Part shown: one piece after another, positions 11,865 through 53,554 of the stretch
How positions within the stretch are numbered: the first letter of the stretch is position 1
How the letters are laid out: each line of letters opens with the position of its first letter
NCBI RefSeq assembly: GCF_025612915.1
Contig: NC_069116.1
Span: 24,643,051-24,707,050 of the forward strand
Direction of reading: 5' to 3'
From: Crassostrea angulata
Taxonomy: Eukaryota
DNA: 64,000 nucleotides
Program-made: the position numbers and the translations under genes
The notes under the pieces: model-generated
Told to the model about the DNA's origin: nothing
The model's input: the letters and a program-made list of their open reading frames with translations, nothing else
The model's database searches: none

Positions 11865-12060
11865 GTAAACTTTGTGGTGCTATTTGGTGATATGTTGGAG
11901 AAATCATCGTATAAGCAAAGACAAGCTGTGAGACATAATGTTCCTGTTCTGCGCTGTGAATTCATCACTGATTGTATTGAACAGAAACAGATTTTGCCAA
12001 CAGCCACATATGCTGTTGGAGAACCAATATCTGGAAAGAATTTCAAAAAAGGACGAATAA
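11865..12060 (+). CDS. PARP4: PARP4-like exon 2 (BRCT C-half)
   Basis: Acceptor ttttcag at 11864. Peptide VNFVVLFGDM...VPVLRCEFITDCIEQKQILP. GTAAG donor at 12061. Confidence 0.7.
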
Positions 12061-12194
12061 GTAAGAGTTCTTGGAGAAATTTTTATGCATATATATAAGT
12101 CTCAATGTACCTGTATACTATATATGCCATGATACATACTATTTTGAATTCTCATTTAAGTAATTAACAACAGTACCGGTAACTTAATTTATAG

Positions 12195-12346
12195 CTAAAC
12201 AAGAAAAGACAAAAAGGTACCTCAGTGCTAGAAGACATGTGAAGAGTGTTAATTTGAATGCTATAAAGTCCTGGTCTCTGGATGATCCTGAAGCCCCATC
12301 ACACAATGATGATCAGTATGAGGTAGCCAAGTGGGTTTTGTTAAAG
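12195..12346 (+). CDS. PARP4: PARP4-like exon 3
   Basis: Acceptor tttatag. Peptide ...DDQYEVAKWVLLK matches human DFEVAKYNTLEK. Donor GTACAG. Confidence 0.6.
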
Positions 12347-12858
12347 GTACAGTGAAAATAATTGGACTTTGAAAAATTTCTTGCAATAATAGAATTATGG
12401 TACGTACTTCAAGTGACAGTGATCGATTTAATGTTTCAATGGAAAAGTGTGGTTCATAACTATTTCATAATTGCGTCACATTTTTTGAAATATGTAATGA
12501 CAGTGATTTAATGTTTAAATGGAAAAGTATGGTTCATAACTATTTCATGATTGCTTAACATTTTTAGAAATTTTAATGGTAAAATACTAAATTCAATGTT
12601 TGTATGTTATGTATATATACATGTACAATATAGGTCAGTTAATTTAATTGACAAGGATTAGTATTTTGAAACTTGAATTGAGACAGCTTATGTGCTATAT
12701 TAGAATTGACTCACCACAATGTTTGATTTCCACCCAATCCTAGTAATTCCCATATTTTATTTATATATATACATGTGATAATAAATTGATGTGCAAGATC
12801 ATAATGTTAATAAATGATATACAATTTAATTTATGATTTCTCATTATTCACTTTTCAG

Positions 12859-12951
12859 TCAACAAAAGTGATTCAGGTTATTGAGGTTCATGCGCTGACG
12901 TCATGTGACAAGTTCCGGCTATATCATCAGGAGGGACACTTGGATGGGGAG
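12859..12951 (+). CDS. PARP4: PARP4-like exon 4 (3' boundary uncertain, weak GTGATT donor)
   Basis: Acceptor cttttcag. Peptide STKVIQVIEVHALTSCDKFRLYHQEGHLDGE. An in-frame stop at 12968 forces a donor at or before 12952. Confidence 0.4.
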
Positions 12952-13164
12952 GTGATTACTGTGCTTCAATAGAACACAATCCTTCAATGATATTCCTCTA
13001 CAGGTTAAATGTAAAAATGACTCTTTTCTGTGAAGTTATGTTAAAATTAGTCCCCTTATCTTTTTTTTTTCCATTTCTATGGGAAAAAATTGATTTTTTT
13101 GTTGTTGTTTGTATAGCTGTAAGTTATTCATGAGCACTTAACTAAACATAAATTACTCTTGCAG

Positions 13165-13335
13165 CACATATTGGCTTCTGAAGGCCCTGTGGTCTGGTAT
13201 TTGGATACTGCTGATGAAGTTCTGGTTTGTTTTGAACAACTTTACAAGAAGTACACATCAGGCATGATGAATATGGAACCTTGGTACACACCTAGATTTG
13301 TCTCCAATCAAATAGGGTCACACAAACTCAAAATG
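13165..13335 (+). CDS. PARP4: PARP4-like exon 5
   Basis: Acceptor ctcttgcag. Peptide HILASEGPVVWYLDTADEVLVCFEQLYKKYTSG...KLKM. Donor GTAAAG. Confidence 0.7.
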
Positions 13336-13628
13336 GTAAAGAATTCACTACCAACAAACATTAATCAAAGTACTAAAAGTATTGATATACACTAGGCATG
13401 TTAATTTTGTATGATTCTATATCTCAAATGGTGTTTGATAAAAGCTCAAAATTTTCCTGTAATTCAATAATTCTACAACTAATTGACAATTAAACAATGT
13501 TTTAAATTCATGTTTACATTGATACATACTGTTGTAAAATGTCACAAAAGATAAGTGGAGTTTGATGTGAAATCACTCTGTACAACATTGTGGCAGAAAT
13601 TAAGGGCTATAGGTTCTTTTTTCTTCAG

Positions 13629-13766
13629 ACATTGGATGACCTTTGTTTGATGAACAGTTTCCTTGATCCAGATGTCGGACAGTTTGTGGAGATGATTTGG
13701 AAGGAAGCCACCCAAGAGGCTGAGAAAATGCTTACTATGTCTATGGAACATATCAGATCTGATAAG
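13629..13766 (+). CDS. PARP4: PARP4-like exon 6
   Basis: Peptide TLDDLCLMNSFLDPDVGQFVEMIWKEATQEAEKMLTMSMEHIRSDK matches human SDLVEMIWAEALGHLEHML. Donor GTATGC. Confidence 0.75.
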
Positions 13767-13961
13767 GTATGCATCTTAATTTATCATTGTTGCTTGTTTC
13801 AGGTAAAGCTTAAAAAAGCTGTTGTTAATGTGCAAAACAAAGTGTATGCATTTTTTTGCTCTTACAGGTAAGTATTTGTTCTTTTTACATGTAGTCCTTA
13901 TGTCAAATGGAAAATAAGTTATGAAAATGTGTAACGTAATCTTTTTAAATCTCATTTGTAG

Positions 13962-14141
13962 GTAGATGATGCCATGGTCATTTTGCAACAGATTAAGCAG
14001 ATGAAGAAAGAGAATCAAGGAGACAACCGCTTGGCTGGATTAGTGGAAGAGTTCTATAATGAGGCTCTCCCCCACAAACAACAGTACATATCACAAGATC
14101 TAGATCCACAAACCATCTCCCAGAAACTAGATTTGTGTCAG
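13962..14141 (+). CDS. PARP4: PARP4-like exon 7
   Basis: Peptide VDDAMVILQQIKQMKKENQGDNRLAGLVEEFYNEALPHKQQY...LDLCQ. Donor GTACTG. Confidence 0.75.
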
Positions 14142-14159
14142 GTACTGTGGTTTCATTAA

Positions 14160-14300
14160 TTTTCGTGGGTATCAATTTTCGTGGATTTTCTGAAAACCAC
14201 AGTTTCAAGGATGCGTAATTTCGTGGCTAATGATCCTATCAATACAAAATGTTAGTTGAAATTGAACTTCAATGAACATTTAATTTCGTGGGTTGCATTA
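14160..14300 (+). repeat. Dispersed ~140-bp repeat, copy 1 (second copy at 58425-58560)
   Basis: About 85% identity. Shared motif ccacagtttcaaggatgcgtaatttcgtggc.aatga.cctatcaatacaaaat.ttag. Confidence 0.6.
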
Positions 14301-14604
14301 AAATTTGACTGGCACACAGACAGGAAAACATGGTATACTATGAATGTTTTCTCCACATCTTGTGCAGATTTTTATTTGGGATACTGAAATGTTGCAGTAT
14401 GCTTTTATGTGTACTGAAAGTTATATATTATGGTGGCAATTAAAAATCATGGCTAGTTAACTATGTACCTGTTTTCTGAAGTCTTCTCAGTTTTTATTCA
14501 AGCTATTAAAAGCAGTTTGCAGTAAATTGCAGTTGGGCCATTTAACATGCTCATATTGATATTAATATTTTTCATGGTCTTGCATTTATATCTATCTTTT
14601 GCAG

Positions 14605-14765
14605 TTGATCTATGATGTTTTGGCTGTAAGTGAAGCCACAGATTTTTCTCCTGCTGCCAGCACTGTTGCTAAGTACAGGGCCCTAAGATGTCACATGACA
14701 AAATTGGACCTGTCTGCCAGCAAATATCAAGTCATACAAAATATTCTCAAGGACAGTGAACAAAG
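14605..14765 (+). CDS. PARP4: PARP4-like exon 8
   Basis: Peptide LIYDVLAVSEATDFSPAASTVAKYRALRCHMTKLD... matches human KYRALRCKIEHVEQ exactly. Confidence 0.8.
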
Positions 14766-14937
14766 GTGGTTTTTATTGTCTTGTTATTAAAGTAGTTGCC
14801 TTTATACTTTATACTCCATTTTAAAGAGAGTGTGTAAACAGTCATCCTGATAATCATGCACAATTGTATGTGTATGTTTTCTCAAAGTTTTGTTTTTCTT
14901 ATCATCATGTACAAGTGTTGCTTTTGTCTTTTTAAAG

Positions 14938-15075
14938 CATTGCAGTTTACAGTGTTTTTGAAGCTGGGAGAACCATGGAGGACATTTTGTTTGAGAGTAC
15001 TGCTGAATGTATTGGAAACACACAATTATTGATGCATGCTTCAGGACCCCATAATCTCTTGGGAATTCTATCAAG
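14938..15075 (+). CDS. PARP4: PARP4-like exon 9 (PARP catalytic, His of H-Y-E triad: LLMHASGPHNLLGILSR)
   Basis: Acceptor ctttttaaag. Matches human LLHGSPVQNIVGILCRG. Donor GTAAAC. Confidence 0.8.
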
Positions 15076-15298
15076 GTAAACTTGTCATTCATTGGTGAAT
15101 ACAAGCTAGGTTTCCATGATTGACATTTTTTCTATGTAAAGTACTTAAAGGCCATAACAAAATTTGTGTTTAATTCAATTCATATATTAAGTATAAAGAA
15201 TACATGTAGATAACACCTTTTGATTGATAATTTGAGACTATAAACACTGCAATAGTGTGCAATTACAGTTTGTGATTCAATGAATGATTTTCTCTTAG

Positions 15299-15397
15299 GG
15301 GACTACTTCTTCCTCAAAATGTAGTGGAGGAACACGGAGTGAACAGGACAGATGGGGGGAAACTGGGATATGGAATCTACTTCTCCAATTCATTCAA
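15299..15397 (+). CDS. PARP4: PARP4-like exon 10 (GLLLPQNVVEEHGVNRTDGGKLGYGIYFSNSF; catalytic Tyr)
   Basis: Matches human GLLLPKVVEDRGVQRTDVGNLGSGIYFSDS. Confidence 0.85.
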
Positions 15398-16087
15398 GTA
15401 AAAAAAAAATTGCATTCTTCTGAATGTTTAATTATACTGAATGTATTATATTTTCTTGACCTTCATATGATTTTTCAGTAGAAATATGATTTAATTTTCA
15501 AAATTATAAAATATATTCTTTTAAAACTTATACATATATTGGTCTGTATTCAGAGATTGTCATAGAAATATGATGAAAAAAATACAAGCACATGGATACA
15601 TGATCACATATCATACTTATAAATAATATATCAAATTGAATTCATAAAGTTGTATATATGTTCTCCAGTGTAATTCACAAGTTCATTGACGCTTTAGTTT
15701 TGTGCTCAGACTGGGTAATATTCCATTTCCTAACCTAACTTTTGATACCCAAAACGTTACCCAAACACCAAGATACATGCAGATGGACGAAATTGTCATT
15801 TATTAAAAAAGATGACAGGAAAATCAAATCAGTAAAGGGGAGATCACTCATACACAATACCATAATACATGATCTCCCCAGTGTATCAAATTACATTAAT
15901 ATTAAGAAAAAAAACCCAATAATCCAGTATCCAAATGATAAAAATGTGCAAAAAGGGTTGCAGACAAAAGCTGCCACAGTACAAACAGAATTTTTGTACC
16001 CACTCCCACCAATTCATAAAATTGGATTTGCATGTGCCTTTAGTATAAAAGTTATAACTTCTGACCTCTCTCTATATTGTAACCCAG

Positions 16088-16271
16088 CACATGCCTTCAG
16101 TATGCTGTACCAAGTGTTGTGACGGGAATGAGAATGCTGGTAGTCTGTGAAGTGGCGCTAGGAAATTGTATGGACTTCACCACCCTCCAGTCAGGTATAA
16201 CAGCACCACCTGGTGGCTACCACAGTTGCCACGGAGTGAAGACCACAGAGAACGATCCAACAGAGTTTTTG
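16088..16271 (+). CDS. PARP4: PARP4-like exon 11 (...RMLVVCEVALGNCMDF...APPGGYHSCHGVK...)
   Basis: Matches human TRLLLICDVALGKCMDL...APPGYDSVHGV. Donor GTAGGT. Confidence 0.8.
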
Positions 16272-16567
16272 GTAGGTCTCATGTTATTTAAGTTCTAACA
16301 GTTATTTTTATCATACACTTGCATGTATGTAGATGTAACTCTCATTCAGTCAAATCATAAAATATTAAAAATGTGTTTGAAGAAACTGTAATTAATTTCA
16401 TTTTTTTTTCATACTGTGTAAAAAAAGACTACCAGTACCTTTAAAGAAAAATGTGAATTAGACTTATTTTTAGTACTTGCTTTAAAGCTTCCTTGATACC
16501 CAATATAATTTTATATTTTTCCTCACAATAACAATAACAATGTATTTGTAATTCTTATCAATGACAG

Positions 16568-16715
16568 GATGATGAGTTTGTGATATACAGCACATCACAG
16601 CAGAGAGTGAAGTATGTAGTTCTGTTCACACTCCCCAGTGATCCACCCCTTCGACTGATCCAAACCACCCCCGAGGAGGAGGAGGAAAACATGGAGGTCA
16701 CTGCAAGCTCTGTTG
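16568..16715 (+). CDS. PARP4: PARP4-like exon 12 (DDEFVIYSTSQQRVKYVVLFTLP; catalytic Glu)
   Basis: Matches human DDEFVVYKTNQVKMKYIIKFSMP. Donor GTAAGA. Confidence 0.8.
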
Positions 16716-17007
16716 GTAAGAGTTCTGTTTCTCTCTTATAATTGAATTTAATTTTTAAAAAATAAACATATACATCAAATGTGATTGTTTTGTCTGTCTG
16801 TCTGTTTTAAACAAGAAATTTGTTGATTGTTATTAAAACAGTTTATCAAGAACATATATCATGGGCATTGAAGGAGATAATAAAGAAGTCTGTTACCAGT
16901 ATTTCATTTTCTTATTCTTTGAAATTCATGGTATGGTAAGAACTGGTATATACAATTAATATAATATAAATTTATTTTTGATGTACATGTACTTGTGTAT
17001 CTAATAG

Positions 17008-17141
17008 ATATAATGGAATTAAGGGACCTGCCTGACCCCTTCTCCAAAGTGACCAGCGGTTTGATCAGCCAGAATAAGTCTGTTCGAGTCCCACTGAAAG
17101 CAGTCCATATCCGGGCCAAGGTCATTGATATGGTGGCAAAG
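17008..17141 (+). CDS. PARP4: PARP4-like exon 13
   Basis: Peptide ...PLKAVHIRAKVIDMVAK matches human PLEDVHIKGRIIDTVAQ. Donor GTAAGA. Confidence 0.75.
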
Positions 17142-17391
17142 GTAAGACAGATACTGTGTGAAAATGCATGCTCCATGTGTTCATTGGAAAAATTTAAAGA
17201 TTGGATTGTTCATGTATGTCATAATGAATGTATAATCTGTCTTATCGGTAATCATGTCTTGATATGATATAGTAATTTGATTCTCCCATCCTTAATTTTT
17301 TTTTTTTTTCATCCTTCAAATTTGAGAGTGATACATGTAGCTAGCAAAAGCAAACTCTTTCAATTCATTTTTTTTTAAAAATTCTAACCAG

Positions 17392-17518
17392 GTTGTTGTC
17401 TTGCAATCTTACAAAAACAACATGACAGAGCCAATCGAGGCGAAGTATGTCTTCCCTCTGGACGAGAAAGCTGCTGTGTGTGGATTCGAAGCATTCATAA
17501 ATGGGAAACACATTATAG
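17392..17518 (+). CDS. PARP4: PARP4-like exon 14 (VIT domain; EAKYVFPLDEKAAVCGFEAFINGKHII); GC-AG intron follows
   Basis: Near-identical to human EAKYIFPLDDKAAVCGFEAFINGKHIVG. Only the donor AG|GCATGT at 17519 preserves frame into the next exon. Confidence 0.7.
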
Positions 17519-17733
17519 GCATGTACATTGAAGTTAATATTCCCTTCAAGTTTCGATTAAAAGCTAAGAAAAAGATGTCTTTTATAGGGATCAATACAAA
17601 AAAAATTTATCATCCGAAACCTTTTTTTAAACATGTGAGTTTCAATTCCTATAGTTCTTTGAAAAAATTGTGTTCTACGGATTTAAAGTGGTACATGTTT
17701 AAAAGTTTTACCATTGGTTGTGGGGATTTTTAG

Positions 17734-17825
17734 GAGAAATCAAGGAAAAGAAGACAGCACACCGCGAGTACAGAGAGGCCATCAGTAAAGGTCACGGTGC
17801 ATACTTAATGGACGAGGAGGAACCA
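17734..17825 (+). CDS. PARP4: PARP4-like exon 15 (EIKEKKTAHREYREAISKGHGAYLMDEEEP)
   Basis: Matches human EIKEKEEAQQEYLEAVTQGHGAYLMSQDAP. Perfect GTAAGT donor. Confidence 0.85.
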
Positions 17826-18600
17826 GTAAGTGTCAACTCAAGAGTCATGGAAGCTAGAAGAGATTAAAAGTTAAAAGAAAGTGTTTCAGTATGATGATGT
17901 GGATAAGTTTACATGTGTAATGCACATGCAATAATGCTATGGTGTAATATGAAAAAAAATTTATATACCTTGGGTGGAACACAGATAATACGGTATCTGC
18001 TTTGACTGTTCTTGATGTCTATTATTACTTATTAGGTTAGTTACTGACTGACTACAGAAATATATCGGGTTATATATTGGGTTACCTATATACATGTATA
18101 CAAGTTGCCTAACATCTCATCCAATTTAACTTATTTAAACTCTTCAAAATTATCAATCTCACCTTTCAAATACTCTTTGAAAATCTACACTAATGTTTAC
18201 TTATAATGTTTTGTTGCCATTCAATTTTAAACGCTTTCTCCCTTTCCTCTGCAGAGATTTGAGCAAATCTCAACACTGCTGTTTTATTCTGCTCCAGACA
18301 CAACAATGTGACGTCAATATTCAAAGGGCAACAAATCTAGTTTTAAAGAATTTCAAAGGGCAACTACTCCAAATATTTTAAGAACTTATGGCATGCGGAT
18401 TTTGTATTATATAACATGAAATTTTGAAATGAGAAGGCGAAGCGTTGGCCAATGACGGCCATTTTGCCTAATATTAATTCTCACAGAACAAACATAGAGA
18501 TATATTAGGCAGTCACGTGCTATGTTTAAACTAATGAAAGTATGACATTTCAGTCCGAGGGAAAACAAATAAATTTAATTTACCTGCTTATTGCTTTTAG

Positions 18601-18765
18601 GATGTATTCACTGTGAGTGTCGGAAATCTACCGCCCGATTCGGAGGTTCTGATAAAGGTGACCTACATCAGTGAGCTTGGGGTGGAGGGAGACGGCATAG
18701 CCTTGACCATCCCTGCCTCAGTGGCCCCGTGGGTCAGAGACACGGCCCTAGCTCAGCAGACCCAG
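18601..18765 (+). CDS. PARP4: PARP4-like exon 16 (DVFTVSVGNLPPDSEVLIKVTYISEL...)
   Basis: Matches human DVFTVSVGNLPPKAKVLIKITYITEL. Confidence 0.85.
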
Positions 18766-18907
18766 GTACTGATCCTAGGTGTATAAATTGCATTCATTGT
18801 CCTCATGCATCAGTTATTTCTTTGGAATGTGTACAGCTTCAATATAGATGGCAGGTAGTGAATATGGAAAGTTTTCATGCTGCTTAATTTTGACAAACTA
18901 TTTGCAG

Positions 18908-19030
18908 GCAGAGACATCAGTCCTTCAGATCAGTGACTTAATGGATTGTCAGATCTCTCTGCAAGCTGCCATAGAAATGCCTTTTGAAATAAGGGAATTG
19001 AATTCTGGAACTCATCGACTCAAGTACAAG
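18908..19030 (+). CDS. PARP4: PARP4-like exon 17
   Basis: Peptide ...SLQAAIEMPFEIRELNSGTHRLKYK matches human SLTMSIEMPYVIEF..THELKQK. Donor GTTCGA is weak. Confidence 0.65.
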
Positions 19031-19185
19031 GTTCGAGTTTATATCACTTTTTTTTTTTTTCTTCATGTCATTTATGATTTACACAAAGATTTATGATACA
19101 TGTTTTGTTAACGACATAAAGTACCAGATAACTCTTGATTGTCTTAAGGTTTTTTTTGGCTACAAAGTATTTTGTTTATTAATAG

Positions 19186-19320
19186 AAAACTGATACCAAG
19201 GCTGTGGTGGAGATACCAAAGAAGTCCAACTTTGCCGAAGGATTCCAGCTGCTGATTAAGTTGGCAGAAATTCATGTTCCGCGCATGTGGGTGGAATGTC
19301 ATCCAGAAAGAGATGTGCAG
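19186..19320 (+). CDS. PARP4: PARP4-like exon 18
   Basis: Peptide ...AEIHVPRMWVECHPERDVQ matches human AAYLPRMWVEKHPEKESE. Donor GTAAGA. Confidence 0.8.
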
Positions 19321-19476
19321 GTAAGAAGCATTGTAGAGGACAAAAATAACCAATTTTACTATTGCTTGAATAAAAAAAAAAATTAAAATTCATAGGGATT
19401 GAGAACTTAAATTGCTTAAGGACACAGGGTCTGAAATTTTTTGTATAAATTAATGGTTGACTTTGAATGATTACAG

Positions 19477-19596
19477 GCCTGTATGTTAGCTTTTTACCCT
19501 GAATTTGAGGCAGCAATCGATCCTAGCCCAGAGGTTGTATTCCTTATGGATTTATCCAACTCTATGAAAGGGGACGCATTTAGAGATTCCAGAAAG
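19477..19596 (+). CDS. PARP4: PARP4-like exon 19 (start of vWA: VVFLMDLSNSMKG)
   Basis: Matches human EACMLVFQPD...VIICLDCSSSMEG. Confidence 0.8.
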
Positions 19597-19940
19597 GTAT
19601 ATCTGTTATCCATTTATTGATATCTTTCAATATACATGTATGATAATTACAATTACATGCAGTTGATCTAGTATGCATTGGACATGAAGATTCGTCTGTT
19701 GAATGGTTTTGTAATTCTTTTATCTATTATTTGGTTATTCATGTATTAAATAAATTCCTTTTGTTAGCCAACAAAAATGAGCATATCAATTCTAGCTCCC
19801 AAATTACCTAACAAACAGTACTTTAATTTTTTCAAGGACTTATTTTTTTTATTGGGGGGGGGGGGGGGGGTAGGGGGGCCATTTTTATTTTTTCATGGTG
19901 ATTTAAAAATATTTAAAAAATTCTTTCATTCTTACATCAG

Positions 19941-20081
19941 GTCTTGCTGCTGGCACTAGAAAATCTTCCTGAGAAAGCTTGCTTTAACATCATGACATTT
20001 GGATCATCCTTTAGGGAGCTCTTCCAGTTTCCTCATAGAATTACAAAGAATTCAACTAATGAGGCCATGAAATATATCGAG
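19941..20081 (+). CDS. PARP4: PARP4-like exon 20 (vWA)
   Basis: Peptide ...FNIMTFGSSFRELFQFPHRITKN matches human VNIIQFGTGYKELFSYPKHITSN. Confidence 0.75.
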
Positions 20082-20361
20082 GTTTGTTTAGACTTGGTTG
20101 TACAAGGATAAAGGCTCAATTTTCTGACATGTTGAAAATGCATGTAACCATTGTCATGTACATGTATTTATGCATATAATGTTCATTACACATGTATGAG
20201 ATTTCTTAAACACATGTGCTATACCTAGTGTATAACAATTAAGTTTACACATCAAGTAACCGTAGAATTTTCTTTTTATATATGTATGTTTGTAATATAC
20301 ATGTATATTACATCTATTATTCATCTGATAAAATATTTGTATTATCATGTTATTATTTCAG

Positions 20362-20546
20362 AGAGCCAATCCTGTGATGGGCTGCAGTGATGTGTTATCT
20401 CCCCTGAAATCTCTGTACTTACTAAGTCCAGCAGAGGGCAGTAGAAGCATCTTCCTGATCTCTGATGGATTCGTAGGAAATGAGGGGCTTTTTGAAACTG
20501 TTGCCAAACATTCCTCCAAAAATAGGCTGTTCTGCATGGGTGTTGG
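20362..20546 (+). CDS. PARP4: PARP4-like exon 21 (vWA: IFLISDGFVGNEG...RLFCMGVG)
   Basis: Matches human ILLVSDGHLQDES...RLFACGIG. Donor GTAAGT. Confidence 0.85.
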
Positions 20547-20860
20547 GTAAGTAAACATGCTCTATGTTACAGACTGGTAAGTGTGTTTGTTCACCTGATA
20601 GAAATTATAAAATAATAGTGAAAATATTTGTATATTATACTTGTGTTTCTAAAACCTTTAGTTTGAATATGCTTGATGTTGCCAATAAAGATACACATCC
20701 CATAATTGCAAGATTTATCCTGAATATCTGAAAGATATTTCTGTGCTTTATTAAACATTCAATAACACCAGTAGTGAACATTGATAAAATGGTTGGAAAA
20801 TGGAACAATTTTAAAATGATCTTTTTATTAATCAAAAATGTTGTGGTGATATCATTTTAG

Positions 20861-20960
20861 AAGTAATAGGGACAGTCATACATTACGGAGTTTAGCTAAT
20901 TATGGAGGTGGGACATATGAATACTTCAACAGCAAAACCAAATCTAACTGGCAGTCAAAG
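20861..20960 (+). CDS. PARP4: PARP4-like exon 22 (SLANYGGGTYEYFNSKTKSNWQSK)
   Basis: Matches human ILSQCGAGVFEYFNAKSKHSWRKQ. Confidence 0.85.
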
Positions 20961-21062
20961 GTAAATAACAGGTGGAACTTTTTTTCATGTTAAAGTGTTT
21001 ATTGTAATGATTGGATTGGATTTGAAGAATATTGCTAACTTATTTTTATAGGTGCTTCTTAT

Positions 21063-21104
21063 AGAGAGAGAGAGAGAGAGTGAGAGAGAGAGAGAGAGAG
21101 AGAT
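21063..21104. repeat. (GA)n microsatellite
   Basis: agagagag...tgagagag run. Confidence 0.95.
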
Positions 21105-21154
21105 GGGTTTTTTCCAGGGTACATAAGTGTATGCTTCTGTGGGTGTATTTACAG

Positions 21155-21325
21155 ATTGCATTACAAATGGACCAAGCTACACGGCCTGGGATCTCCCAGG
21201 TGCAGGTGGAGTGGGGCCCGCTCACTGATAAACTAGATCCACCCCTTCAGGCTCCCTGTAGGATCCCCAGCCTGTTCAGTGCAAATAGGCTTGTGGTGTA
21301 TGGATTTGTCAAGAATAGCACACAG
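21155..21325 (+). CDS. PARP4: PARP4-like exon 23
   Basis: Peptide ...APCRIPSLFSANRLVVYGFVKNSTQ matches human APAQVPSLFLNDRLLVYGFIPHCTQ. Confidence 0.85.
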
Positions 21326-21627
21326 GTATGTTTTGAAAGAATGACATTTTTTGTTAATTTACATGTAGGTATGCACAGTGATTAAATTACTATGCAATTC
21401 GTTGTTGATTTAAAGTGGGGTTTTTTTTTCAAACCAAAATACATTGTACAGATTTCAAGGGGAGATAATTGTGAAGCAGTCTAGGAAATAAGTTTGATAT
21501 TTGATAAGTAAAAGTGCTTGTACATGTATATAAAAACTAATATAGGTTTATTATTTAGGAACTATAATCATTTGTGTTGATTTATTATATTTGAAAGATT
21601 ATTTCATTCATAGTTTATTCTTTATAG

Positions 21628-21708
21628 GCAATTTTAAAGGCAAAGGTTGATGAACAGGAATTTGAAACAATTGTTTCTACAACAGAGCTGAACTTCACAG
21701 AGGGAAAG
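21628..21708 (+). CDS. PARP4: PARP4-like exon 24
   Basis: Peptide AILKAKVDEQEFETIVSTTELNFTEGK matches human ATLCALIQEKEFRTMVSTTELQKTTG. Confidence 0.85.
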
Positions 21709-22160
21709 GTAAAGAAGCATTAATATGACAAATGGTATCAAATTTTCTGTTTAATCACCATGCAAAACTACAGTATTAAGGTAATAATATACAGGGCAAA
21801 TATAGACTGACCTTGCTCCACTGTCACCAAAATATTTTCTAATCACTCAACTCATTCCTCGGCTCAAGTACTTTAAAGAAATTAAAGCACATAAAAATTT
21901 GAGGTAAAACCTCAGATTTGAGGCTGAGTATTGACTTGAGGAAAGTGACGACGGAGCCGTAGATTTACAGGTTGAAAAGGAAGTTTCATAAGTGTAAATA
22001 GATGATTATTGACCAATACCTACAAACTGCTATGATTCTTGAAATAGTCAATGTTAAGATTGGTAGAGTTTTGAGTATTTCAAATGTCATTTAATTTCAT
22101 CTATGAACATGAACTGAAAGATTTAACATTTGCTATGCACTTTCTGTTCTGTACCGTTAG

Positions 22161-22241
22161 ATGCTGCATCAGTTGGCGGCCAGGGCTGTTATAAGGGATT
22201 ATGAGGACGGGGTTCTGAGTGACAGCAAACTTCACCACAAG
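22161..22241 (+). CDS. PARP4: PARP4-like exon 25
   Basis: Peptide MLHQLAARAVIRDYEDGVLSD matches human MIHKLAARALIRDYEDGILHE. Confidence 0.85.
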
Positions 22242-22485
22242 GTATGGCACTGATCATGCACACTGTAATTCTTCATATCTACATCTTATATACATTAAAA
22301 TAAATCACACATGTTAAAATTATTCAGGATCCCCAATTCTCTCTGTTAAAATCATCTTGCATGTTAGTGAAACATCAAAATAATTTGGTTTGTAAAAGTA
22401 AAATTTGAAATTTGACCAGAGTTCTTGTCAAATAAATCAAGATCTGGAATTCGATTTTACTGATGAACTGGGTTTTTTCTTTCAG

Positions 22486-22587
22486 TTAATTAAACAAGAA
22501 AGAAAGCAGCATATCATTGAGCTCAGCAAAGAGTTTGGAATTGTGACTCCATACACCAGTTTTGTAGCCATAGAAGAGAGGACAGAG
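22486..22587 (+). CDS. PARP4: PARP4-like exon 26
   Basis: Peptide ...GIVTPYTSFVAIEERTE matches human SLITQFTSFVAVEKRDE. Confidence 0.8.
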
Positions 22588-22848
22588 GTAGAATATAAGG
22601 GATCTTTCACTGGGTCATGTTTGATATTTTGAAATTGCAAAAATTGTACCAGAGCAGTTTGTGGCAATTGTATGGAACATTGCAAAGTTCCTGAACACCT
22701 GATATTTTATATTTTAAGTACTGATATATGTACTTTTGTATTTGCAAATATGGTTTATGATGAATATACATTTTAAAAACAATGTACATGTATGATCATG
22801 TGTATTACCTGTAACTAAAAAAATATAGAAAATGATTTATTATTTTAG

Positions 22849-27500: not shown

Positions 27501-27592
27501 AAAAAAAGAAAAAGAAGAAATGTTTAAGTGAAAAAGAGGCAGAAGAGCTGGGATTTCTGGAGAAAATGGATAAAGTTCATACAAATCAAAAG
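27501..27592 (+). CDS. PARP4: Candidate Lys-rich exon bridging into the low-complexity exon
   Basis: Acceptor ttgaag, donor GTACAT. It converts phase 1 to phase 0 exactly as required to enter the exon at 41922. Confidence 0.3.
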
Positions 27593-41686: not shown

Positions 41687-41708
<22 letters not shown>

Positions 41709-41921
41709 ATAGTTTGTGTTTAATAGAGACGAAAGCAAACTGTACAATTGAAGTAGTAAATACCTATACCAGAAATGAGGATTTTTTCAAAAAATGAAAT
41801 AAAAATATGACTTTATTTGGATGGCAAATAAAAAGGACATTTTGAGAAATACGTGTCTGTTTACACCAAGAAATGTGATTAAAATCTTATAAAAATTTCG
41901 GCTATCTCTGTTATATTATAG

Positions 41922-44636
41922 GAATACAAGAAAAGTTTGGTGGATCAGCAAGAAGGACCAAATGTAATAGCTGAACAGTTGAATGATGTTGGCAACATCG
42001 CAGGTGTGTCAATAACAGCAGTACTCAATGAATCAAACTTAGATAATGTAGAGTTTGACATCGATGTGACACAAATGGAAAATGAGCCAGATGAAGTTGT
42101 AGAAACTTCCTCTCTTAAGGAATTAAATCAGATTTCAAAACCAACAATTCAAAGTTCCAGTGCTTCTAAGAAATGGGGGTTTTCCTTAGAAGCTGCTTTA
42201 AGTCCTACCCTTCAGACATACAGTTCCACCTCACCAGTCTTCAGTCCTGCTTCACCAGCATATGGTTCTACCTCTGCAGGATTTTGCCCCACCTCACCAG
42301 CATACAATCCCACCTCACCAGCATACAGTCCCACCTCACCAGCATACAATCTCACCTCACCAGCATACAGTCCCACCTCACCAGCATACAATCCCACCTC
42401 ACTAGCATTTAGACCTACCTCACCAATCTTAAAAGTGTCAAAAGCATTCAATCCCACTTCACCAGCTTATCTTTCTCCATCTATCACTCTCCGTCCCACT
42501 TTTCCAGCAATCTGTCTTAACTCCATATCACAAACATACTTCTCCACTACAGCAGCAGTCTCTCAAACCGTGCCACCACAAAGTTTCACTGGCAACATAG
42601 ATCAGAAAGCAGACCAAGAATATTCAGATGATGATATTCATGTTGAATCTGACAGTGAAGATGATGATTTTGAGGTGAATGATGACAGGGGAAGTAGTTT
42701 AGAGAGAAGACCTAGACCAATAGACAAATGCTTTGATGAAAATGAAGATATTGAGGAGAATGAGAGTAGTGCTAATATAATTAAGAGATATGGAGAACAA
42801 GAAAAATCTAATTATTCAGAAGGCAGGGGTTCAGAAAAAAGAAATAGATATTTGCAAAGTGAAGATCAAAGTTTTAAAAGTAGTAACAGTCCAGTTTTAA
42901 AGAGAAGAGGAAGGAGTAGAAACAGGATATATAACAGTAGACAAGAAGAAAGAGGAGTCAGAAGTTGTGATAGGAGCTGGAATAGAAGAGACAGAAATAG
43001 TGATAGAAGCGGAGATAGTAGCACCAAAAATATGGATAGAAGCTGGGATAGTATAACCAGAAGCAGAGATAGTAGCACCGAAAGTAGGAATAGGAGCTTG
43101 GATAGAAGATCCAGAAGTAGGGATAGAATCAGGGTTTCTAGATCCAGAATAAGGGATAGAAACTGGGATAGTATAACAAGAAGCAGGGAAAGTAGCACCA
43201 AAAGTAGGAATAGAAGAGACAGAAGTCATAATGGGACCTTTGATAGAAGATCAAGAAGTGGGGATAGAAGCTGGGATAGTATAACCGGAAGCCGGGATAG
43301 TAGCACCAAAAGAAGGGATAACAGCTCCAGAAGTAGGGATAGAAGCTGTGATAGTATAACCAGAAGCAGGGATAGTAGCACCAACAGTAGGGATAGAAGC
43401 TTGGATAGTAAAACCAAAAGCAAGGATATTAGCACCAAAAGAAGGGATAGAAACTTTGGTAGAAGGGACAGAAGTAGGGTTAGAAACTTTGATAGTATAA
43501 CCAGAAGCAGGGATAGTAGCTTGGGTAGAAGGGACAGAAGTAGAGATATGAACTTGGATAGTAGAACCAGCAGTAGGGATAAAAGATCCAGTAGAGATAG
43601 CAGCAGTGATTGCAGCACCAAAAGTAGGGATAGAAGCTTGGATAGAAGAGACAGAAAATGTGATAGAAGCTCGGATAGTAGAACCAGAAGTAGGGATAGA
43701 AGCAGGGATAGTAGAACCAGAAGTAGGGATAGAAGCAGATATACAAGAACCAAAAGTAGAGACTGGAGCTGGTATAGAAGAGACAGAAGTTATGATAGGA
43801 GCTGGGATAGAAGAGACCGAAGTAGGGATAGGAGCTTGGAGAGTAGAGACAGAAGTTATGATGGGAGCTGTACTAGGAAATCAAGAAGTACGGATAGAAG
43901 CTGGGAGAGAAGAGACAGAAGCTGGGATAGGGAAAATAGAAGAAGAGAAAGAAGAGACAGAAGTAGAGATAGATGCATGGATAGCAGTAGAGATAGAAGC
44001 TGGGATAGAAGAGACAGAAGATGTGATAGAAGCTGGGATGGAAGAAGCAGAAGTAGGGATAGAAGCAGGGATATTAGAACCAGAAGTAGGGATAGAAGCA
44101 GAGATACTAGAACCAAAAGTAGAGATTGGAGCTGGTATAGAAGAGACAGAAGTTATGATAGGAGCTGGGATAGAAGAGACCAAAGTAGGGATAGGAGCTG
44201 GGAGAGTAGAGACGGAAGTAGGAACAGAAGCTGGGATAGAGAAAACAGAAGAGATAGAAGAGACAGAAGAAGGGATCAAAGCTGGGGTAGAAGAGACAGA
44301 AGCAGGAACAAAAGCTGGGATAGTAGAGTCAGACGCCGCAATAAAAGCTGGGATGAAAGAGAAAATAGAAGAGATAGAAACATTTACAGAAAATCCAAAA
44401 GAAGAGATTGGAATTGGGAAAGTAGTAAAATAGGTAGTGATAGAAGCTGGGATAGAGACAGAAGCATTAAAGATAGGAGTAAAAAATTGTATGGAAAGAA
44501 AACAAGAGGCAGGAAAAGAAAAACAAGTAAGAAAAGTGATGATAGTAAGATGCCACAGAGAACCAAAGAACCGTATAATCTGAAGGGAACTCAGTTTGAA
44601 CTAGAGCTATCAGAAGAAGGTGAGATAATGGATTAA
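41922..44636 (+). CDS. Large low-complexity exon (acidic N-part, ~10 Pol II CTD-like heptads, ~600-aa RS/RD/W region) ending in stop
   Basis: The 899-aa ORF opens immediately after an acceptor (ttatattatag|GAA) at 41921. It carries ~10 Pol II CTD-like heptads ([18 protein letters not shown]) and a long RSRDRS/DRSW-repeat region. The in-frame TAA at 44634 is followed by AATAAA at 44649. An alternative GTGAGA donor at 44620 would continue into downstream PARP4 exons. Confidence 0.6.
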
Positions 44637-44648
44637 ATATTTAAACAG

Positions 44649-44654
44649 AATAAA
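44649..44654 (+). promoter_or_regulatory. Putative polyadenylation signal AATAAA
   Basis: It lies 13 nt after the stop codon of the low-complexity ORF. Confidence 0.35.
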
Positions 44655-45230
44655 CTATATTTGAAGAAATAAACATGATTTCTGTCCTATTATGTATTTT
44701 GTATATATATGCATTGATTTATTGCAATTGCCTCTTTGTAGAACTTTTGAATTCCTTGTGCCTTTATGAAAGTCAGTTTGAGGCACCTGTTGGAAATGGA
44801 GATATTGAAGTCCACTGCTGGACAGGTATAGATGTACACTCTTATAACAAAGATATATGAATCAAGTTTGTTATGAAGAATGTCAGAGTATTGGTAAATG
44901 ATAATGATTAATTCCATATTTGTAACTGAGTGGAATGGATCTAATTAAGGATTGTTAATAACATTAACAATTTTGTATTCATGCAATTTATATTGTTTTA
45001 ATGTTTGAGATTTGACTTATGTCTGACATGGTTAAAGTAATTAGTTTAAAACAATTTTTTTTAGAAATTTAATACACAATTTGTGCTTTCTTGAATTGGA
45101 GGACAAAATAAAATTTTTAGTAGAAACTGAGACATTAATCTGAGATTTGAAGTTTTTTAAATGAGAAATCCAAGACAGAACTCTGCCACTATATTTAACC
45201 TGAACTCAAGTTATGATTTTCTTACTTCAG

Positions 45231-45315
45231 GGAATTTGCACTATCAAAAGATTAGTACCAGGGAAAACATAAATTATGAAATTGACGTTTATGTTAATCC
45301 ACAGAGAAAAGAGAG
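45231..45315 (+). CDS. PARP4: Candidate small exon (phase-bridging)
   Basis: Acceptor cttacttcag, donor GTGAGA. It converts phase 1 to phase 2. Confidence 0.3.
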
Positions 45316-45418
45316 GTGAGAAACATTTGAGAGTGACTTTCATTGATAAGTATGCCTTATAAGAGCAAGTACAAAGGTATACACAGATTTGCCGTCATTT
45401 TCAGCTCACTGAGCATAT

Positions 45419-47752: not shown

Positions 47753-47924
47753 GGTACAAAATGTATTGTTGCCAAAAACATTATACATGACCTTTGTGCC
47801 AAGTTATCTGCTGAGAATGTTGAGCCTGCAGCAATTTCTGGAGAATGCAGTGCAAGCAACTATGAAAGTGCAAGATGCTCCAGAAGAATTCTTACCAATA
47901 GGAGAATTCTTACCGATAGGACTG
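47753..47924 (+). CDS. PARP4: Candidate exon (phase-bridging)
   Basis: Acceptor aaacttgtag, donor GTAAGA. It converts phase 2 to phase 0 as required by the exon at 49863. Confidence 0.35.
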
Positions 47925-49862: not shown

Positions 49863-50018
49863 ATTGGATGCATTCAAATCGAGGAACCTAAGGGACATTT
49901 TGAACTTGTTTTAGCAATTCCACATTCTATGAGTGAGACAGTATTGTTCCTTATCCCAGAATATGGAAAGGCTGTGGCTGAACAGCTTGAAGAGTTTGTG
50001 AAGGAACATAAAATGCAG
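49863..50018 (+). CDS. PARP4: PARP4-like exon (IGCIQIEEPKGHFELVLAIP...)
   Basis: Acceptor tctttgtag, donor GTATGT. Matches human ...DEIVCIQHWQDAVPWTELL. Confidence 0.6.
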
Positions 50019-52287: not shown

Positions 52288-52330
52288 GTTAAAGAATACA
52301 GGAACAAACTGAATGAGACACTTTCTACAG
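52288..52330 (+). CDS. PARP4: PARP4-like small exon
   Basis: Acceptor tttgtag, donor GTCTGT. Phase-consistent. Confidence 0.5.
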
Positions 52331-52471: not shown

Positions 52472-52554
52472 ATGCACCTTACATCGACATGTGGAAGAGT
52501 GTGTGGGACAAAGATGGCACAATGAACTTTAAATATCTGCCACCTTTGAACGAG
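52472..52554 (+). CDS. PARP4: PARP4-like exon
   Basis: Peptide DAPYIDMWKSVWDKDGTMNFKYLPPLNE. Donor GTACAT. Confidence 0.55.
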
Positions 52555-52798: not shown

Positions 52799-52898
52799 GA
52801 TGGACTGTGGAGACTTGATAAGGATCTCGCTGAGGGATTAGCAATCAGTGCCGAAAAACTGGAACAGTTACTGAAGAATCAAGGCTTTCTGTCACTAT
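52799..52898 (+). CDS. PARP4: PARP4-like exon (MVP-binding region: DGLWRLDKDLAEGLAISAEKLEQLLKNQG)
   Basis: Matches human DGFWKLTPELGLILNLNTNGLHSFLKQKG. Donor GTAAGA. Confidence 0.7.
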
Positions 52899-53228: not shown

Positions 53229-53554
53229 CAAAATCCATTCAGAGTGAGCTGTTACCTGTGATGGCCACTTTTCTTGTTGGTATAATCAAGTTTATGCATG
53301 AATTCAAAGAAAGAAAACTTCCAAAGTGGCTGTGTTGCTGCGAACATCTTCTTGACATATCCCCAAACATTTCTTCGGTGGTAGTCAGTTTTAAATGTAT
53401 GAAAGAAGTTGTCAGCATTGGGTTTGATTTTCCACTGGAGGCATCCATTCAGTTGGGAAATCGTAAACCAATATCGACTCCTTACATCAGAGATTTGGAT
53501 CTTGGGAAAAACCTGACACACCTTGTGGATTGCCTGTTACAGTCACTGTTCTAA
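53229..53554 (+). CDS. PARP4: PARP4-like terminal exon (MVP-binding domain) with stop
   Basis: Peptide ...LLPVMATFLVGIIKFMHEFKERKLPKW...ASIQLGNRKPISTPYIRDLDLGKN... matches the human PARP4 C-terminus. TAA at 53552-53554. Confidence 0.75.

Follow-up and report, generated by a model that had tools for sequence, protein, structure and literature searches.

A large coding exon of an oyster PARP4 gene, probably its linker, encodes RNA polymerase II CTD-like heptads and an RS/RD mixed-charge array

To our knowledge, no other PARP is as poorly understood as PARP4, and in no species has a function been assigned to its long disordered linker; we also know of no ubiquitin-like or PTOV/ACID-like domain in the human protein. 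RS domains and arginine-rich mixed-charge (RD/RE) domains, such as those of U1-70K, SRRM2 and SON, drive partitioning into nuclear speckles. The RPB1 CTD is made of YSPTSPS heptads. In human PARP4, the place equivalent to the exon described here holds a disordered, fast-evolving ITIHL-to-MVPID linker, and an AF2 survey of the human protein lists neither a ubiquitin-like nor a PTOV/ACID-like domain (PMC10450202). In human cells, PARP4 has been reported to work together with hnRNPM, a regulator of splicing, in a vault-independent manner (PMC11265163). We found no account in the literature of a PARP4 with CTD-like, RS or PTOV modules. In this study, we analysed a stretch of 64,000 nt from Crassostrea angulata (the window). 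Judged from its sequence, the PARP4 linker appears to have been rebuilt in this lineage as two interaction grammars, one of Pol II CTD heptads and one of RS/RD mixed-charge type, an unusual feature in a PARP.

The oyster linker lies at the same protein position as that of vertebrate PARP4, and both are long, disordered and fast-evolving (PMC10450202). In tblastn fragments of fish PARP4, tandem acidic low-complexity repeats were also found at the linker position. The oyster linker differs from the human one in that its roughly 900 aa come from a single exon and resemble, in composition, an RS/RD domain as well as the Pol II CTD. A ubiquitin-like and a probable Med25 PTOV/ACID-like domain flank it, and the C-terminal domain beyond it has no significant sequence match to human MINT (MVP-interacting).

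The host gene was identified through its upstream exons. A Pfam search of these exons, joined, returned VIT (4.7e-36), VWA_3 (4.2e-22) and PARP (PF00644, 2.2e-17), and BRCT_2 reached 19.8 bits (E=9.6e-4), under the cut-off of 27.3, in a query that did not contain the first exons. Full-length human PARP4 (PDB 9bw6 chain) matched these exons with E=3.3e-230, query residues 177-1141 being collinear with human 209-1183, and the human catalytic-region structures 8sx1 and 8swy matched the upstream exons with E=2e-59 and 1e-43. Since the upstream exons are collinear with human PARP4, the large exon sits where the human disordered linker sits. The ubiquitin-like domain adjoining the linker was detected by Pfam (E=1.8e-8). 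Med25 ACID/PTOV (PF11232) matched the window exons with 29.0 bits against a GA of 25 (E=1.1e-6, profile 5-153/154) and three related oyster sequences with 22.4-23.7 bits, which is under the GA. The C-terminal exons matched neither Med25 ACID among PDB sequences nor, in BLASTP and phmmer searches, fish PARP4 or any entry of the whole PDB, the 1724-aa human PARP4 chain included. With hhalign, the C-terminal domain aligned with the point where the C-terminal region of fish PARP4 begins, a positionally right and weak match (E=0.007, probability 5%), and an AF2 model built from a 3-sequence alignment for the C-terminus deduced from transcripts (421 aa) was not usable (mean pLDDT 35). Word-indexed protein searches returned mollusc PARP4 as short fragments only, none full-length, and did not recover the oyster's own RPB1; a metagenome scan found no genomic relatives.

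We then turn to the large exon itself (Table 1). The ORF listing of the window has an 899-aa ORF at 41937-44636, and translation from 41922 to 44636 gave 904 codons followed by a stop. The polypyrimidine-AG acceptor reads ttatattatag/GAATAC at 41922, and the three intron bases in front of it are an in-frame TAG; therefore, the ORF opens exactly at the acceptor. The first ATG comes only at codon 52, and a donor, AAG/GTGAGA, lies at 44619/44620. The frame, the TAG-preceded acceptor and the donor thus agree with the sequence-only reading, which had proposed a single-exon 899-aa ORF starting at an acceptor; the acidic N-terminal part and DE-rich stretch that it described were both seen by composition. 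The probability that the first 330 non-repetitive codons stay open by chance is ~9e-10 at the local base composition, and each of the five other frames of the region contains 17-173 stops. These results indicate that the ORF is real and non-random.

The 5' junction of the exon was taken from the C. gigas RefSeq models XP_034299736.1 and XP_034299737.1, whose chain runs through 21167-21325, ~21628-21711, 22161-22226, 25731-25775, 26419-26472 and 27497-27592 to 41922. These models, the RefSeq "fray2-like" X1/X2, begin at an internal Met past the VWA domain, and they skip the first UBL exon and exons conserved in other animals (22483-22620 and 22855-22968). A phase-based search also gave a consistent chain from 21167 to 27592, again without the conserved exon 22855-22968. 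The 3' junction was taken from two RNA-seq-derived Logan contigs of a related oyster, L002 (SRR22371049_20504) and L004 (SRR22371050_14091), both ~90% identical to the window. Their match to the exon stops at 44619, and they align as spliced transcripts from there through each downstream exon of Table 1 in turn, the last from 53229 onward. In the window, the nine exons from 41922 to 53554 all have GT-AG junctions and share one frame of 1248 codons up to the stop at 53552. The segment 41922-44619 is a real internal protein-coding exon, and it is expressed, as seen in a relative.

The splice chain proposed earlier (27501-27592, 41922-44619, 45231-45315, 47753-47924, 49863) was right in how the large exon is entered and left, and it missed the 84-nt exon at 44742-44825. 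As the length of this exon is a multiple of 3, that chain was phase-consistent even without it. The earlier idea that this exon represents an expanded PARP4 linker of low complexity was borne out by the RefSeq junction from 27592 to 41922, the contigs leading out of 44619 and the PARP4 identity of the upstream exons. The exon very probably encodes most of the PARP4 linker between the VIT/VWA half, with the ubiquitin-like domain, and the PTOV/ACID-like and terminal domains, the RefSeq models linking its 5' side and the contigs its 3' side.

The second suggestion of the sequence-only reading was a separate nested gene, lying within an intron of PARP4, which would agree with a separate RefSeq locus name, "serine/threonine-protein kinase fray2-like", that is unrelated to PARP4, and with C. 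gigas models that start at an internal Met. However, those models begin in exons homologous to post-VWA PARP4 of brachiopod, annelid and fish, and the exon lacks its own start, with a TAG directly 5', an acceptor at its edge and a late first ATG. Splicing at both ends of the exon contradicts this suggestion, and we regard a nested gene as hardly credible. The sequence aligned to the model so named contains no kinase domain. This corrects the annotation of the product.

Table 1. Positions in the window of the large exon, its segments and the surrounding features
Feature	Coordinates	Strand	Basis and details
Upstream PARP4 exons (BRCT-like, PARP catalytic, VIT, VWA, post-VWA)	11847..22620	+	Pfam; human PARP4 match; tblastn of invertebrate and fish PARP4 fragments
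Upstream PARP4 exon (…KKKKKKCLSEKEAEELGFLEKMDKVHTNQK), phase-0 donor AAG/gtacat joined to 41922	27501..27592	+	tblastn of C. gigas XP_034299736.1 (P0001); splice-site listing
Large internal coding exon	41922..44619	+	2698 nt = 899 codons + 1 nt; entry phase 0, exit phase 1
Acidic non-repetitive head, aa 1-97	41922..42212	+	Composition
In-frame internal intron (exitron), CAG/GTGTGT … CTACAG/CAG	42004..42552	+	549 nt, 183 codons; C. gigas isoform X2
Pol II CTD-like heptad array, aa 98-200	42213..42521	+	TRF; Pfam PF05001; codon-by-codon listing
D/E/S-rich acidic block, aa 228-330	42603..42911	+	Composition; conserved in C. gigas and L003
Arg/Ser/Asp/Trp array, aa 331-845	42912..44456	+	TRF; composition and dipeptide counts
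Lys/Arg-rich tail (…ELELSEE)	44457..44619	+	Conserved in L002 and L004
Intron, 122 nt, with in-frame stop 44634-44636 and AATAAA at 44649 and 44668	44620..44741	+	Spliced out in L002 and L004
84-nt exon (ELLNSLCLYESQFEAPVGNGDIEVHCWT)	44742..44825	+	L002/L004 spliced alignment; canonical sites, continuous frame
Exon, part of Med25 PTOV/ACID-like region	45231..45315	+	L002/L004; frame
Exon, part of PTOV/ACID-like region	47753..47924	+	L002/L004; frame
Exon, end of PTOV/ACID-like region	49863..50018	+	L002/L004; frame
Linker exon	52288..52330	+	L002/L004; frame
Linker exon	52472..52554	+	L002/L004; frame
Exon, start of C-terminal domain (DGLWRLDKDL…)	52799..52898	+	L002/L004; frame
Last coding exon, stop 53552-53554	53229..53554	+	Transcript contig; 3' UTR to at least ~54228

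The exon could also serve as an alternative terminal exon. Retention of 44620-44741 would add GEIMD and a stop, and cleavage after AATAAA would give a PARP4 without the PTOV-like and C-terminal domains. The signals on which this earlier proposal was based are present, the stop at 44634 being 5 codons past the donor and the two AATAAA copies (44649/44668) lying within 50 nt. However, the 122-nt intron has been removed by splicing in both transcript contigs, and no read or contig ends at the AATAAA site. AT-rich intron sequence can be expected to hold a stop no more than 5 codons past a donor, AATAAA is found once per ~820 nt (821) on this strand, and the two copies here are one 20-nt tandem duplication. 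Such a short form is quite unlikely.

We examined the repeats of the exon, beginning with the heptad array. TRF reported a 21-nt unit in 10.0 copies at 42217-42425, the core of the array, and the Pfam family RNA_pol_Rpb1_R (PF05001) matched with 41 bits (cut-off 20.3; E=1.7e-10). Eleven consecutive units of the form [YF]xx[TA]S[PLA] are in register, and there are 14 SP motifs. An exact Y[SN][PL]TSPA is found in 4 of the ~11 heptads, and YSPTSPA in two only. The ~10 CTD-type heptads noted beforehand are therefore present as ~11 in-register units with PF05001 above its cut-off. Like the RPB1 CTD, the oyster array consists of tandem 7-aa units with Tyr1, Pro3, Thr4, Ser5 and Pro6. It differs from the RPB1 CTD in having Ala at position 7 and often Asn at position 2, so that Ser2 is missing in half of the clean heptads, and in comprising ~11 units only, which are mostly degenerate, removable by splicing and weakly constrained. 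No RPB1 core (Pfam RNA_pol_Rpb1_1-7) was found in the exon and the flanking exons are those of PARP4; thus, the block is CTD-like but not an RPB1 CTD. PF05001 repeats without an RPB1 core also occur among the database matches, for example in a diatom TPR and RRM protein (P0060) and in oomycete and metagenomic hypothetical proteins (P0026, P0080). In contrast to the oyster protein, these are unrelated to PARP4, and none pairs heptads with an RS array.

The Pfam match, together with the finding that the best non-oyster matches are RPB1 CTDs of many eukaryotes, would fit an origin from the RPB1 CTD of the organism itself, by retroposition or transduplication. However, the repeat unit alone matches, and the core, linker and tail of RPB1 are all missing from its flanks. 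Its consensus reads Y(S/N)PTSPA, the codon sets of neighbouring heptads (copies 5-9) differ by 0-2 nt, and the copy number varies between close relatives, C. gigas having 4 heptads fewer than the window and the related genomic contig L003 fewer still. We consider this origin highly improbable, although one or two RPB1 heptads may have seeded the block. As copies 5-9 are nearly identical, they point to recent local amplification. We propose that two in-frame minisatellites expanded in place by slippage-type growth. The 21-nt unit would have given ~11 SPAY(S/N)PT heptads that copy the Pol II CTD motif, and a 33-nt unit would have given the ~515-aa mixed-charge Arg/Ser/Asp array that is followed by the Lys/Arg tail.

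The heptads can be removed by splicing. The C. gigas isoform X2 (P0121) reads …NDVGNIS/AAVSQT…, that is, without exactly the 42004-42552 segment, and removing this segment deletes the whole heptad array. The segment has GT-AG ends, lies wholly inside a coding exon, has a length divisible by 3 and leaves both forms coding, as is typical of an exitron. Its splice sites are also kept in L003. As in other exitrons, it encodes a disordered segment that is removed in one annotated isoform; its use is taken from a Gnomon isoform model in C. gigas only. An in-frame GT-AG intron takes out exactly the heptads in one annotated isoform, so this module is optional. In L003, a TAA stands in frame within the heptad/exitron segment, which also argues that the CTD-like module is dispensable.

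The second repeat region is the Arg/Ser/Asp/Trp array, which contains R 32%, S 22%, D 16% and W 4% and has a net charge of +86. In ~515 aa, RS occurs 51 times, SR 46, RD 47 and DR 49. Equal numbers of RS/SR and RD/DR dipeptides are interleaved, which makes the array a mixed RS/RD domain. Trp is a regular feature of it (22 W, 11 RSW[DEY]). The RS/RD/W repeat domain described from sequence alone is thus present, with a length of ~515 aa and not ~600. Its building unit had been given as a ~84-nt coding tandem repeat; TRF instead found that a period of 33 nt (11 aa) dominates, together with its 66-nt and 99-nt multiples, at 43590-44251, the 84-nt period being local to 44169-44323 (1.8 copies). The RS frame is open up to the 5' end of both transcript contigs. 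The Lys/Arg tail is a candidate classical nuclear localisation signal by its pattern. Like SR-related proteins, the oyster protein is rich in RS/SR and RD/DR, encoded by one large exon of coding tandem repeats. It differs from them in that its RS runs are broken by Asp (RSRDRS) with no long RS tracts, Trp is regular, and the host protein is an ADP-ribosyltransferase. Pfam scans, which covered the exon and neighbouring exons, detected no RRM, and no other RNA-binding fold in the exon. Therefore, this is at most an SR-related, RS-domain-containing protein and not a classical SR protein.

We investigated the constraint on the exon by comparison with relatives. The acidic head is 93-95% identical to C. 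gigas and L003, and all indels of the exon relative to related sequences are multiples of 3. Calculated from few substitutions, dN/dS was ~0.86 over the head plus heptads, ~1.2 in the acidic block (19 substitutions) and 0.46-0.64 in the tail; the flanking folded domains gave 0.42-0.63. Constraint on the exon therefore appears weak (dN/dS about 0.5-1.2), and compared with L003 the exon has diverged at least as fast as the adjacent intron. With the same gene structure, the exon might be a neutrally drifting, slippage-made disordered tether that needs only to stay in frame. Its likeness to CTD and RS sequences would then be a by-product of the expansion of S/P/T/Y-rich and AGA/GAT-rich units. A dN/dS near 1 in the head and acidic parts, heptad counts that differ among close relatives, the stop of L003 inside the exitron and a divergence no slower than that of intron sequence all agree with this, as does the disordered and fast-evolving human linker (PMC10450202). 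However, the 2.7-kb frame is open in at least 3 taxa or haplotypes with in-frame indels only, and the RS/RD composition and K/R tail are kept in a ~90%-identical relative. The dN/dS of the tail is no higher than that of the flanking folded domains, and neither the net charge nor the regular Trp is required of random slippage products. Neutral drift of this kind is a genuine possibility that we nevertheless do not favour. The explanation as a whole, namely a PARP4 linker exon with in-place repeat expansion, optional heptads and a presumed address or tether role, is likely to be correct.

On the reading as a PARP4 linker exon, the array may be multivalent and phosphorylatable and work as an address and tether. 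Partitioning into the nucleus or nuclear speckles, and RNA binding, could follow from domains of mixed RS/RD charge and from K/R-rich signals, and the CTD-like heptads could be written by CTD kinases and read by CTD-binding domains. RNA or the compartments of transcription and splicing might then attract the long oyster PARP4 isoforms, with the C-terminus docking elsewhere, presumably in the vault. By analogy with known systems, we put forward this address or tether role, with nuclear or speckle targeting and CTD-type reading, tentatively and with some doubt. A bolder and rather unlikely extension is that the long isoforms would be nuclear and would couple ADP-ribosyltransferase activity to transcription and splicing. 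The enzyme would combine three modules that resemble parts of the Pol II machinery, namely a CTD decoy switchable through the exitron, a speckle-targeting RS/RD domain and a Med25-ACID-like activator-binding domain, in addition to the ubiquitin-like domain. Acidic/hydrophobic blocks (…DNVEFDIDV…, …DDDFEVNDD…) might bind the PTOV-like domain intramolecularly, and the vault PARP would be a condensate-resident regulator in this lineage; in a variant, the +86 array would package RNA inside vaults.

The linker adjoins a ubiquitin-like domain and probably one of Med25-ACID-like type, and its CTD-like part can be included or left out by splicing. If the modules are used, they would suggest a nuclear RNA-processing role for PARP4, in line with the human report on hnRNPM and splicing (PMC11265163), and would provide a natural experiment on low-complexity address labels arising from coding minisatellites. 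Otherwise, the locus would still be a clean case of neutral repeat expansion within an essential reading frame.

A further contig, L005, which had seemed to be an 88%-identical relative, was rejected as a bisulfite-converted contig of the same genome, since 136 of its 145 mismatches are C>T. It was left out of the divergence figures, and P0275 was rejected as a translation artefact of L005. In the bisulfite-derived contig, which covers 44151-45452, the C was kept at 8/8 CpG sites and 136/136 non-CpG C were converted, a pattern of gene-body CpG methylation.

The plus-strand segment 41922-44636 was translated and gave 904 codons followed by a stop. In the ORF listing, its 899-aa ORF was by far the longest non-satellite ORF of the window. 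The three intron bases preceding 41922 form an in-frame TAG and are themselves preceded by a pyrimidine-rich tract (ctatctctgttatattatag|GAATAC). The frame therefore opens exactly at the splice acceptor, as the sequence-only reading had described. The ORF exceeds chance expectation: given the base composition of the region, the probability that the first 330 non-repetitive codons lack a stop by chance is ~9e-10, and the remaining five frames of the exon contain 17-173 stops. The roughly ten heptads of the RNA polymerase II C-terminal domain (CTD) type noted earlier were borne out. Eleven consecutive units were found in register, of which four read as clean Y(S/N)(P/L)TSPA, and the Pfam RPB1 C-terminal repeat scored 41 bits on the exon (cut-off 20.3, E=1.7e-10). 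TRF detected the 21-nt unit in 10 copies at 42217-42425. In the Arg/Ser/Asp/Trp array, the dipeptides RS, SR, RD and DR occur ~50 times each, and the net charge is +86. An ~84-nt tandem unit had been proposed for this array; instead, a 33-nt unit with 66- and 99-nt multiples was dominant at 43590-44251, and the 84-nt period was local, with 1.8 copies (TRF). Trp is regularly spaced in the array (22 W and 11 RSW[DEY], roughly one for every one or two 11-aa units), a feature not known to us from any other RS or mixed-charge domain.

Features of the large exon, the exons upstream of it and the transcript blocks downstream of it (window coordinates)
Feature	Position	Strand	Residues	Basis or composition
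Upstream exons of the C. gigas model	21167-21325, ~21628-21711, 22161-22226, 25731-25775, 26419-26472, 27497-27592	+		alignment of XP_034299736.1
Acidic head	41922-42212	+	1-97	non-repetitive
CTD-like heptads	42213-42521	+	98-200	21-nt unit
S/T stretch	42522-42602	+	201-227	S 19%, T 19%
D/E/S block	42603-42911	+	228-330	acidic
Arg/Ser/Asp/Trp array	42912-44456	+	331-845	R 32%, S 22%, D 16%, W 4%
Lys/Arg tail	44457-44618	+	846-899	composition
L002/L004 blocks after 44619	44740-44826, 45228-45316, 47751-47903, 49862-50020	+		contig alignment
Further L002/L004 blocks	52283-52330, 52470-52555, 52797-52898, 53217-54228	+		contig alignment

An all-protein HMMER search with the exon returned P0269, a 420-aa protein whose first 78 residues correspond to the exon tail. 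P0269 and its two cluster mates came from the Logan assemblies of runs SRR22371049 and SRR22371050. Their contigs, L002 (2092 nt) and L004 (2695 nt) from a related oyster, were ~90% identical to the window and aligned in blocks, and their match to the exon stopped exactly at 44619. L002 and L004 represent spliced mRNAs, and in each the main frame runs without a stop to the contig's 5' end, where it encodes RS-type sequence. After boundary refinement in the window, GT-AG sites were found at nine of nine exons, and a single frame of 1248 codons runs from 41922 to a stop at 53552-53554. The exon order of the splice chain in the sequence-only reading agreed with these transcripts, but an 84-nt exon at 44742-44825 had been missed and the last four exons had not been reached. 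The phases had still closed because the length of the missed exon is a multiple of three.

A truncated isoform ending at the stop at 44634 is possible but unlikely, and an alternative terminal exon had been suggested from this stop and the AATAAA at 44649. Both signals are present, as is the donor AAG|GTGAGA at 44619|44620, and a second AATAAA lies at 44668, beside the first. However, the stop and both AATAAA copies fall in a 122-nt intron that is removed in both transcripts. In addition, the AATAAA pair belongs to a 20-nt tandem duplication, and AATAAA occurs once per 821 nt on the plus strand. The other earlier proposal, an independent nested gene, did not hold either, as the exon is joined upstream in the C. 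gigas model and downstream in the transcript contigs. The exon is therefore internal, neither terminal nor a separate gene. A 31-33-nt tandem repeat (CAGGAACATATCTCACATTTCTCATCACTGTCA) forms two arrays (48003-48678 and 48932-49472) in the intron that separates exon 47753-47924 from exon 49863-50018; several of their frames lack stops ('HCHRNISHIS…'), but the transcripts do not contain them.

The Logan contig L005 (run SRR22963499) matched 44151-45452, with C>T changes at 136 of its 145 mismatches, which marks it as a bisulfite-converted copy of the window's own genome. CpG cytosines were retained at 8/8 sites and non-CpG cytosines converted at 136/136, which indicates full, dense gene-body CpG methylation across the exon tail and neighbouring introns. 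Gene-body CpG methylation in oysters accompanies broadly expressed genes, and this pattern was therefore taken as further support for expression. The 42-aa 'protein' P0275 was rejected as an artefact of bisulfite conversion in L005.

The best database match of the exon was C. gigas XP_034299736.1, 'serine/threonine-protein kinase fray2-like isoform X1' (609 bits, 74% identity), with gap lengths in multiples of seven residues, which places the window in an oyster close to C. gigas. The remaining strong matches were RPB1 CTDs from unrelated eukaryotes, aligned over the heptads only. The 161 residues of XP_034299736.1 upstream of the exon map to window exons at 83-98% identity, and the model runs on at 41922 after its exon 27497-27592. 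Pfam found no kinase domain in the window exon aligning to this model. RefSeq thus already includes the exon, within a protein that was predicted automatically and misnamed. On the plus strand between ~11.8 and 22.6 kb, Pfam detected PARP catalytic (E=2.2e-17), VIT (4.7e-36) and VWA (4.2e-22) domains and a weak BRCT match. The concatenated upstream exons matched the full-length human PARP4 chain in PDB (E=3.3e-230), collinear with human residues 209-1183, and PARP4 fragments of brachiopod, annelid, tunicate and fish aligned to them, including at 21152-21343 and 22161-22244. These comparisons assign the upstream exons to PARP4, and by catalytic, VIT and VWA criteria the gene is a PARP4 orthologue. 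Two further plus-strand exons, 22483-22620 and 22855-22968, are conserved in brachiopod, annelid and fish PARP4 (…ELSKEFGIVTPYTSFVAIEE…) and are skipped by both C. gigas RefSeq models that include the large exon. No phase-consistent chain through 22855-22968 was found, and the gene model between 22.2 and 24.7 kb is therefore provisional.

Upstream of the large exon, Pfam ubiquitin scored 34.4 bits (cut-off 25.4, E=1.8e-8) on two plus-strand PARP4 exons, ~24750-24914 and 25654-25772, whose ubiquitin-like domain terminates in LRGG. In the C. gigas RefSeq 'fray2-like' models the first exon is left out, and the second is entered at an internal acceptor, 25731. Directly downstream, four plus-strand exons (44742-50018) matched Pfam Med25 PTOV/ACID over profile positions 5-153 of 154, at 29 bits in the window (gathering score 25, E=1.1e-6) and at 22-24 bits in three related sequences. 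Neither the sequence nor a small profile from this region matched Med25 in PDB, and its AF2 model had a pLDDT of 35. We regard it as a candidate Med25 PTOV/ACID-like domain. The last ~140 residues gave a weak but correctly placed hhalign match (E=0.007, probability 5%) to the beginning of the C-terminal region of fish PARP4 and had no similarity to the human PARP4 chain; an MVP-interacting domain is at most a candidate here. Human PARP4 has a long disordered linker between its ITIH-like region and C-terminal MVP-interacting domain, and one patch of it is positively selected in primates (PMC10450202); the MVP-interacting domain is helical (PMC12280208). Judged by its flanks, the large exon lies at the position of this linker. 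These results show it to be expressed and internal to PARP4, and its product to be a disordered linker built from repeats.

C. gigas isoform X2 (XP_034299737.1) reads …NDVGNIS|AAVSQT… and lacks the segment carrying all heptads. The matching window sites are CAG|GTGTGT at 42004 and CTACAG|CAG at 42552; the segment between them is 549 nt (183 codons), so its removal keeps the frame. Both splice sites are kept in the related genomic contig L003. The segment is a predicted in-frame intron within a coding exon (exitron), whose use is known only from the Gnomon isoform model, and the CTD-like part is shown to be optional in the annotated isoform. L003 has an in-frame TAA (…KKRG*SLRATL…) inside this segment at ~650-660 (window ~42175-42185), which could be a real allele or an assembly error. 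If it is real, only the exitron-spliced form would be translatable in that genome.

Heptad copies 5-9 differ from one another by 0-2 nt. C. gigas has four heptads fewer than the window (gaps of 21 and 7 residues), and L003 (run SRR6063042; another taxon or haplotype) has fewer still, although short-read assembly can collapse such repeats. Pfam found no RPB1 core or flanking sequence around the heptads, and the resemblance is restricted to the repeat unit. The near-identical copies, the copy-number variation and the lack of RPB1 core or flank disfavour a retroposed RPB1 fragment; a heptad or two from RPB1 may have seeded the array. The sequence evidence points to in-place minisatellite expansion as the origin of the exon. 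By the Nei-Gojobori method, dN/dS against L003 was 0.86 for the head and first heptads and about 1.2 for the acidic block (19 substitutions). Against L002/L004 it was 0.46-0.64 for the exon tail, 0.42-0.63 for the PTOV-like domain and 0.43-0.46 for the C-terminal domain. All indels between taxa are in frame, which indicates that the reading frame is preserved even as the residues drift. Such a pattern is expected if selection acts on the composition or length of a disordered region, or simply against breakage of the protein.

Nuclear import, partitioning into nuclear speckles, RNA binding and phosphorylation by SRPK/CLK are promoted by RS domains, by arginine-rich mixed-charge domains and by K/R-rich signals. 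CTD-type heptads can serve as substrates of CTD kinases and as binding sites for CTD-interaction, WW and capping-enzyme domains. From these properties we infer that the long isoform may carry a multivalent address label for transcription/splicing compartments or RNA, which would be placed between the catalytic half and the C-terminal docking part. The chief competing view sees the linker as a passive spacer that expands neutrally; weak constraint, heptad copy-number variation and the L003 stop favour this view particularly for the heptads. A nuclear role is conceivable given that human PARP4 was reported to act with hnRNPM on splicing, independently of vaults (PMC11265163). The oyster heptads are CTD-like but are not an RPB1 CTD because the RPB1 core is missing, and the lack of an RRM makes the exon product SR-related rather than a classical SR protein. 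CTD-type heptads outside RPB1 exist in databases, for example in the diatom TPR/RRM protein P0060. Our literature search found no paper on PARP4 with CTD-like, RS, ubiquitin-like or PTOV modules. The oyster linker is of interest for PARP4 biology and the evolution of low-complexity domains, with putative roles read from its sequence.

Within the 14.3-kb intron before the large exon, a 12,757-bp segment (28945-41701) is absent from L003, which joins 28944 to 41702. Its core consists of two inverted arrays (30314-34242 and 34883-38222) of a 21-nt (105-nt higher-order) minisatellite, in 187 and 158 copies, with arms of up to 2 kb that are 86-92% complementary. The segment has a GC content of 0.5 against a background of 0.33 and contains many open frames. 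The inverted GCTCACCTGAG-type sequence at its ends is suggestive of a composite mobile element with satellite DNA as cargo. Upstream of PARP4, a 471-aa plus-strand ORF (5918-7333) weakly resembles hAT transposases (DUF659 E=4e-7; hAT dimerisation domain E=0.007). A 43-nt tandem repeat at ~57800-58270 (+) is open in three of three plus-strand frames. The next gene downstream, at 60230-63790 (+), is that of the TFIIH subunit Tfb4/p34 (GTF2H3), and Pfam Tfb4 matched two exon-sized ORF segments there (E=1.4e-21 and 2.2e-7).
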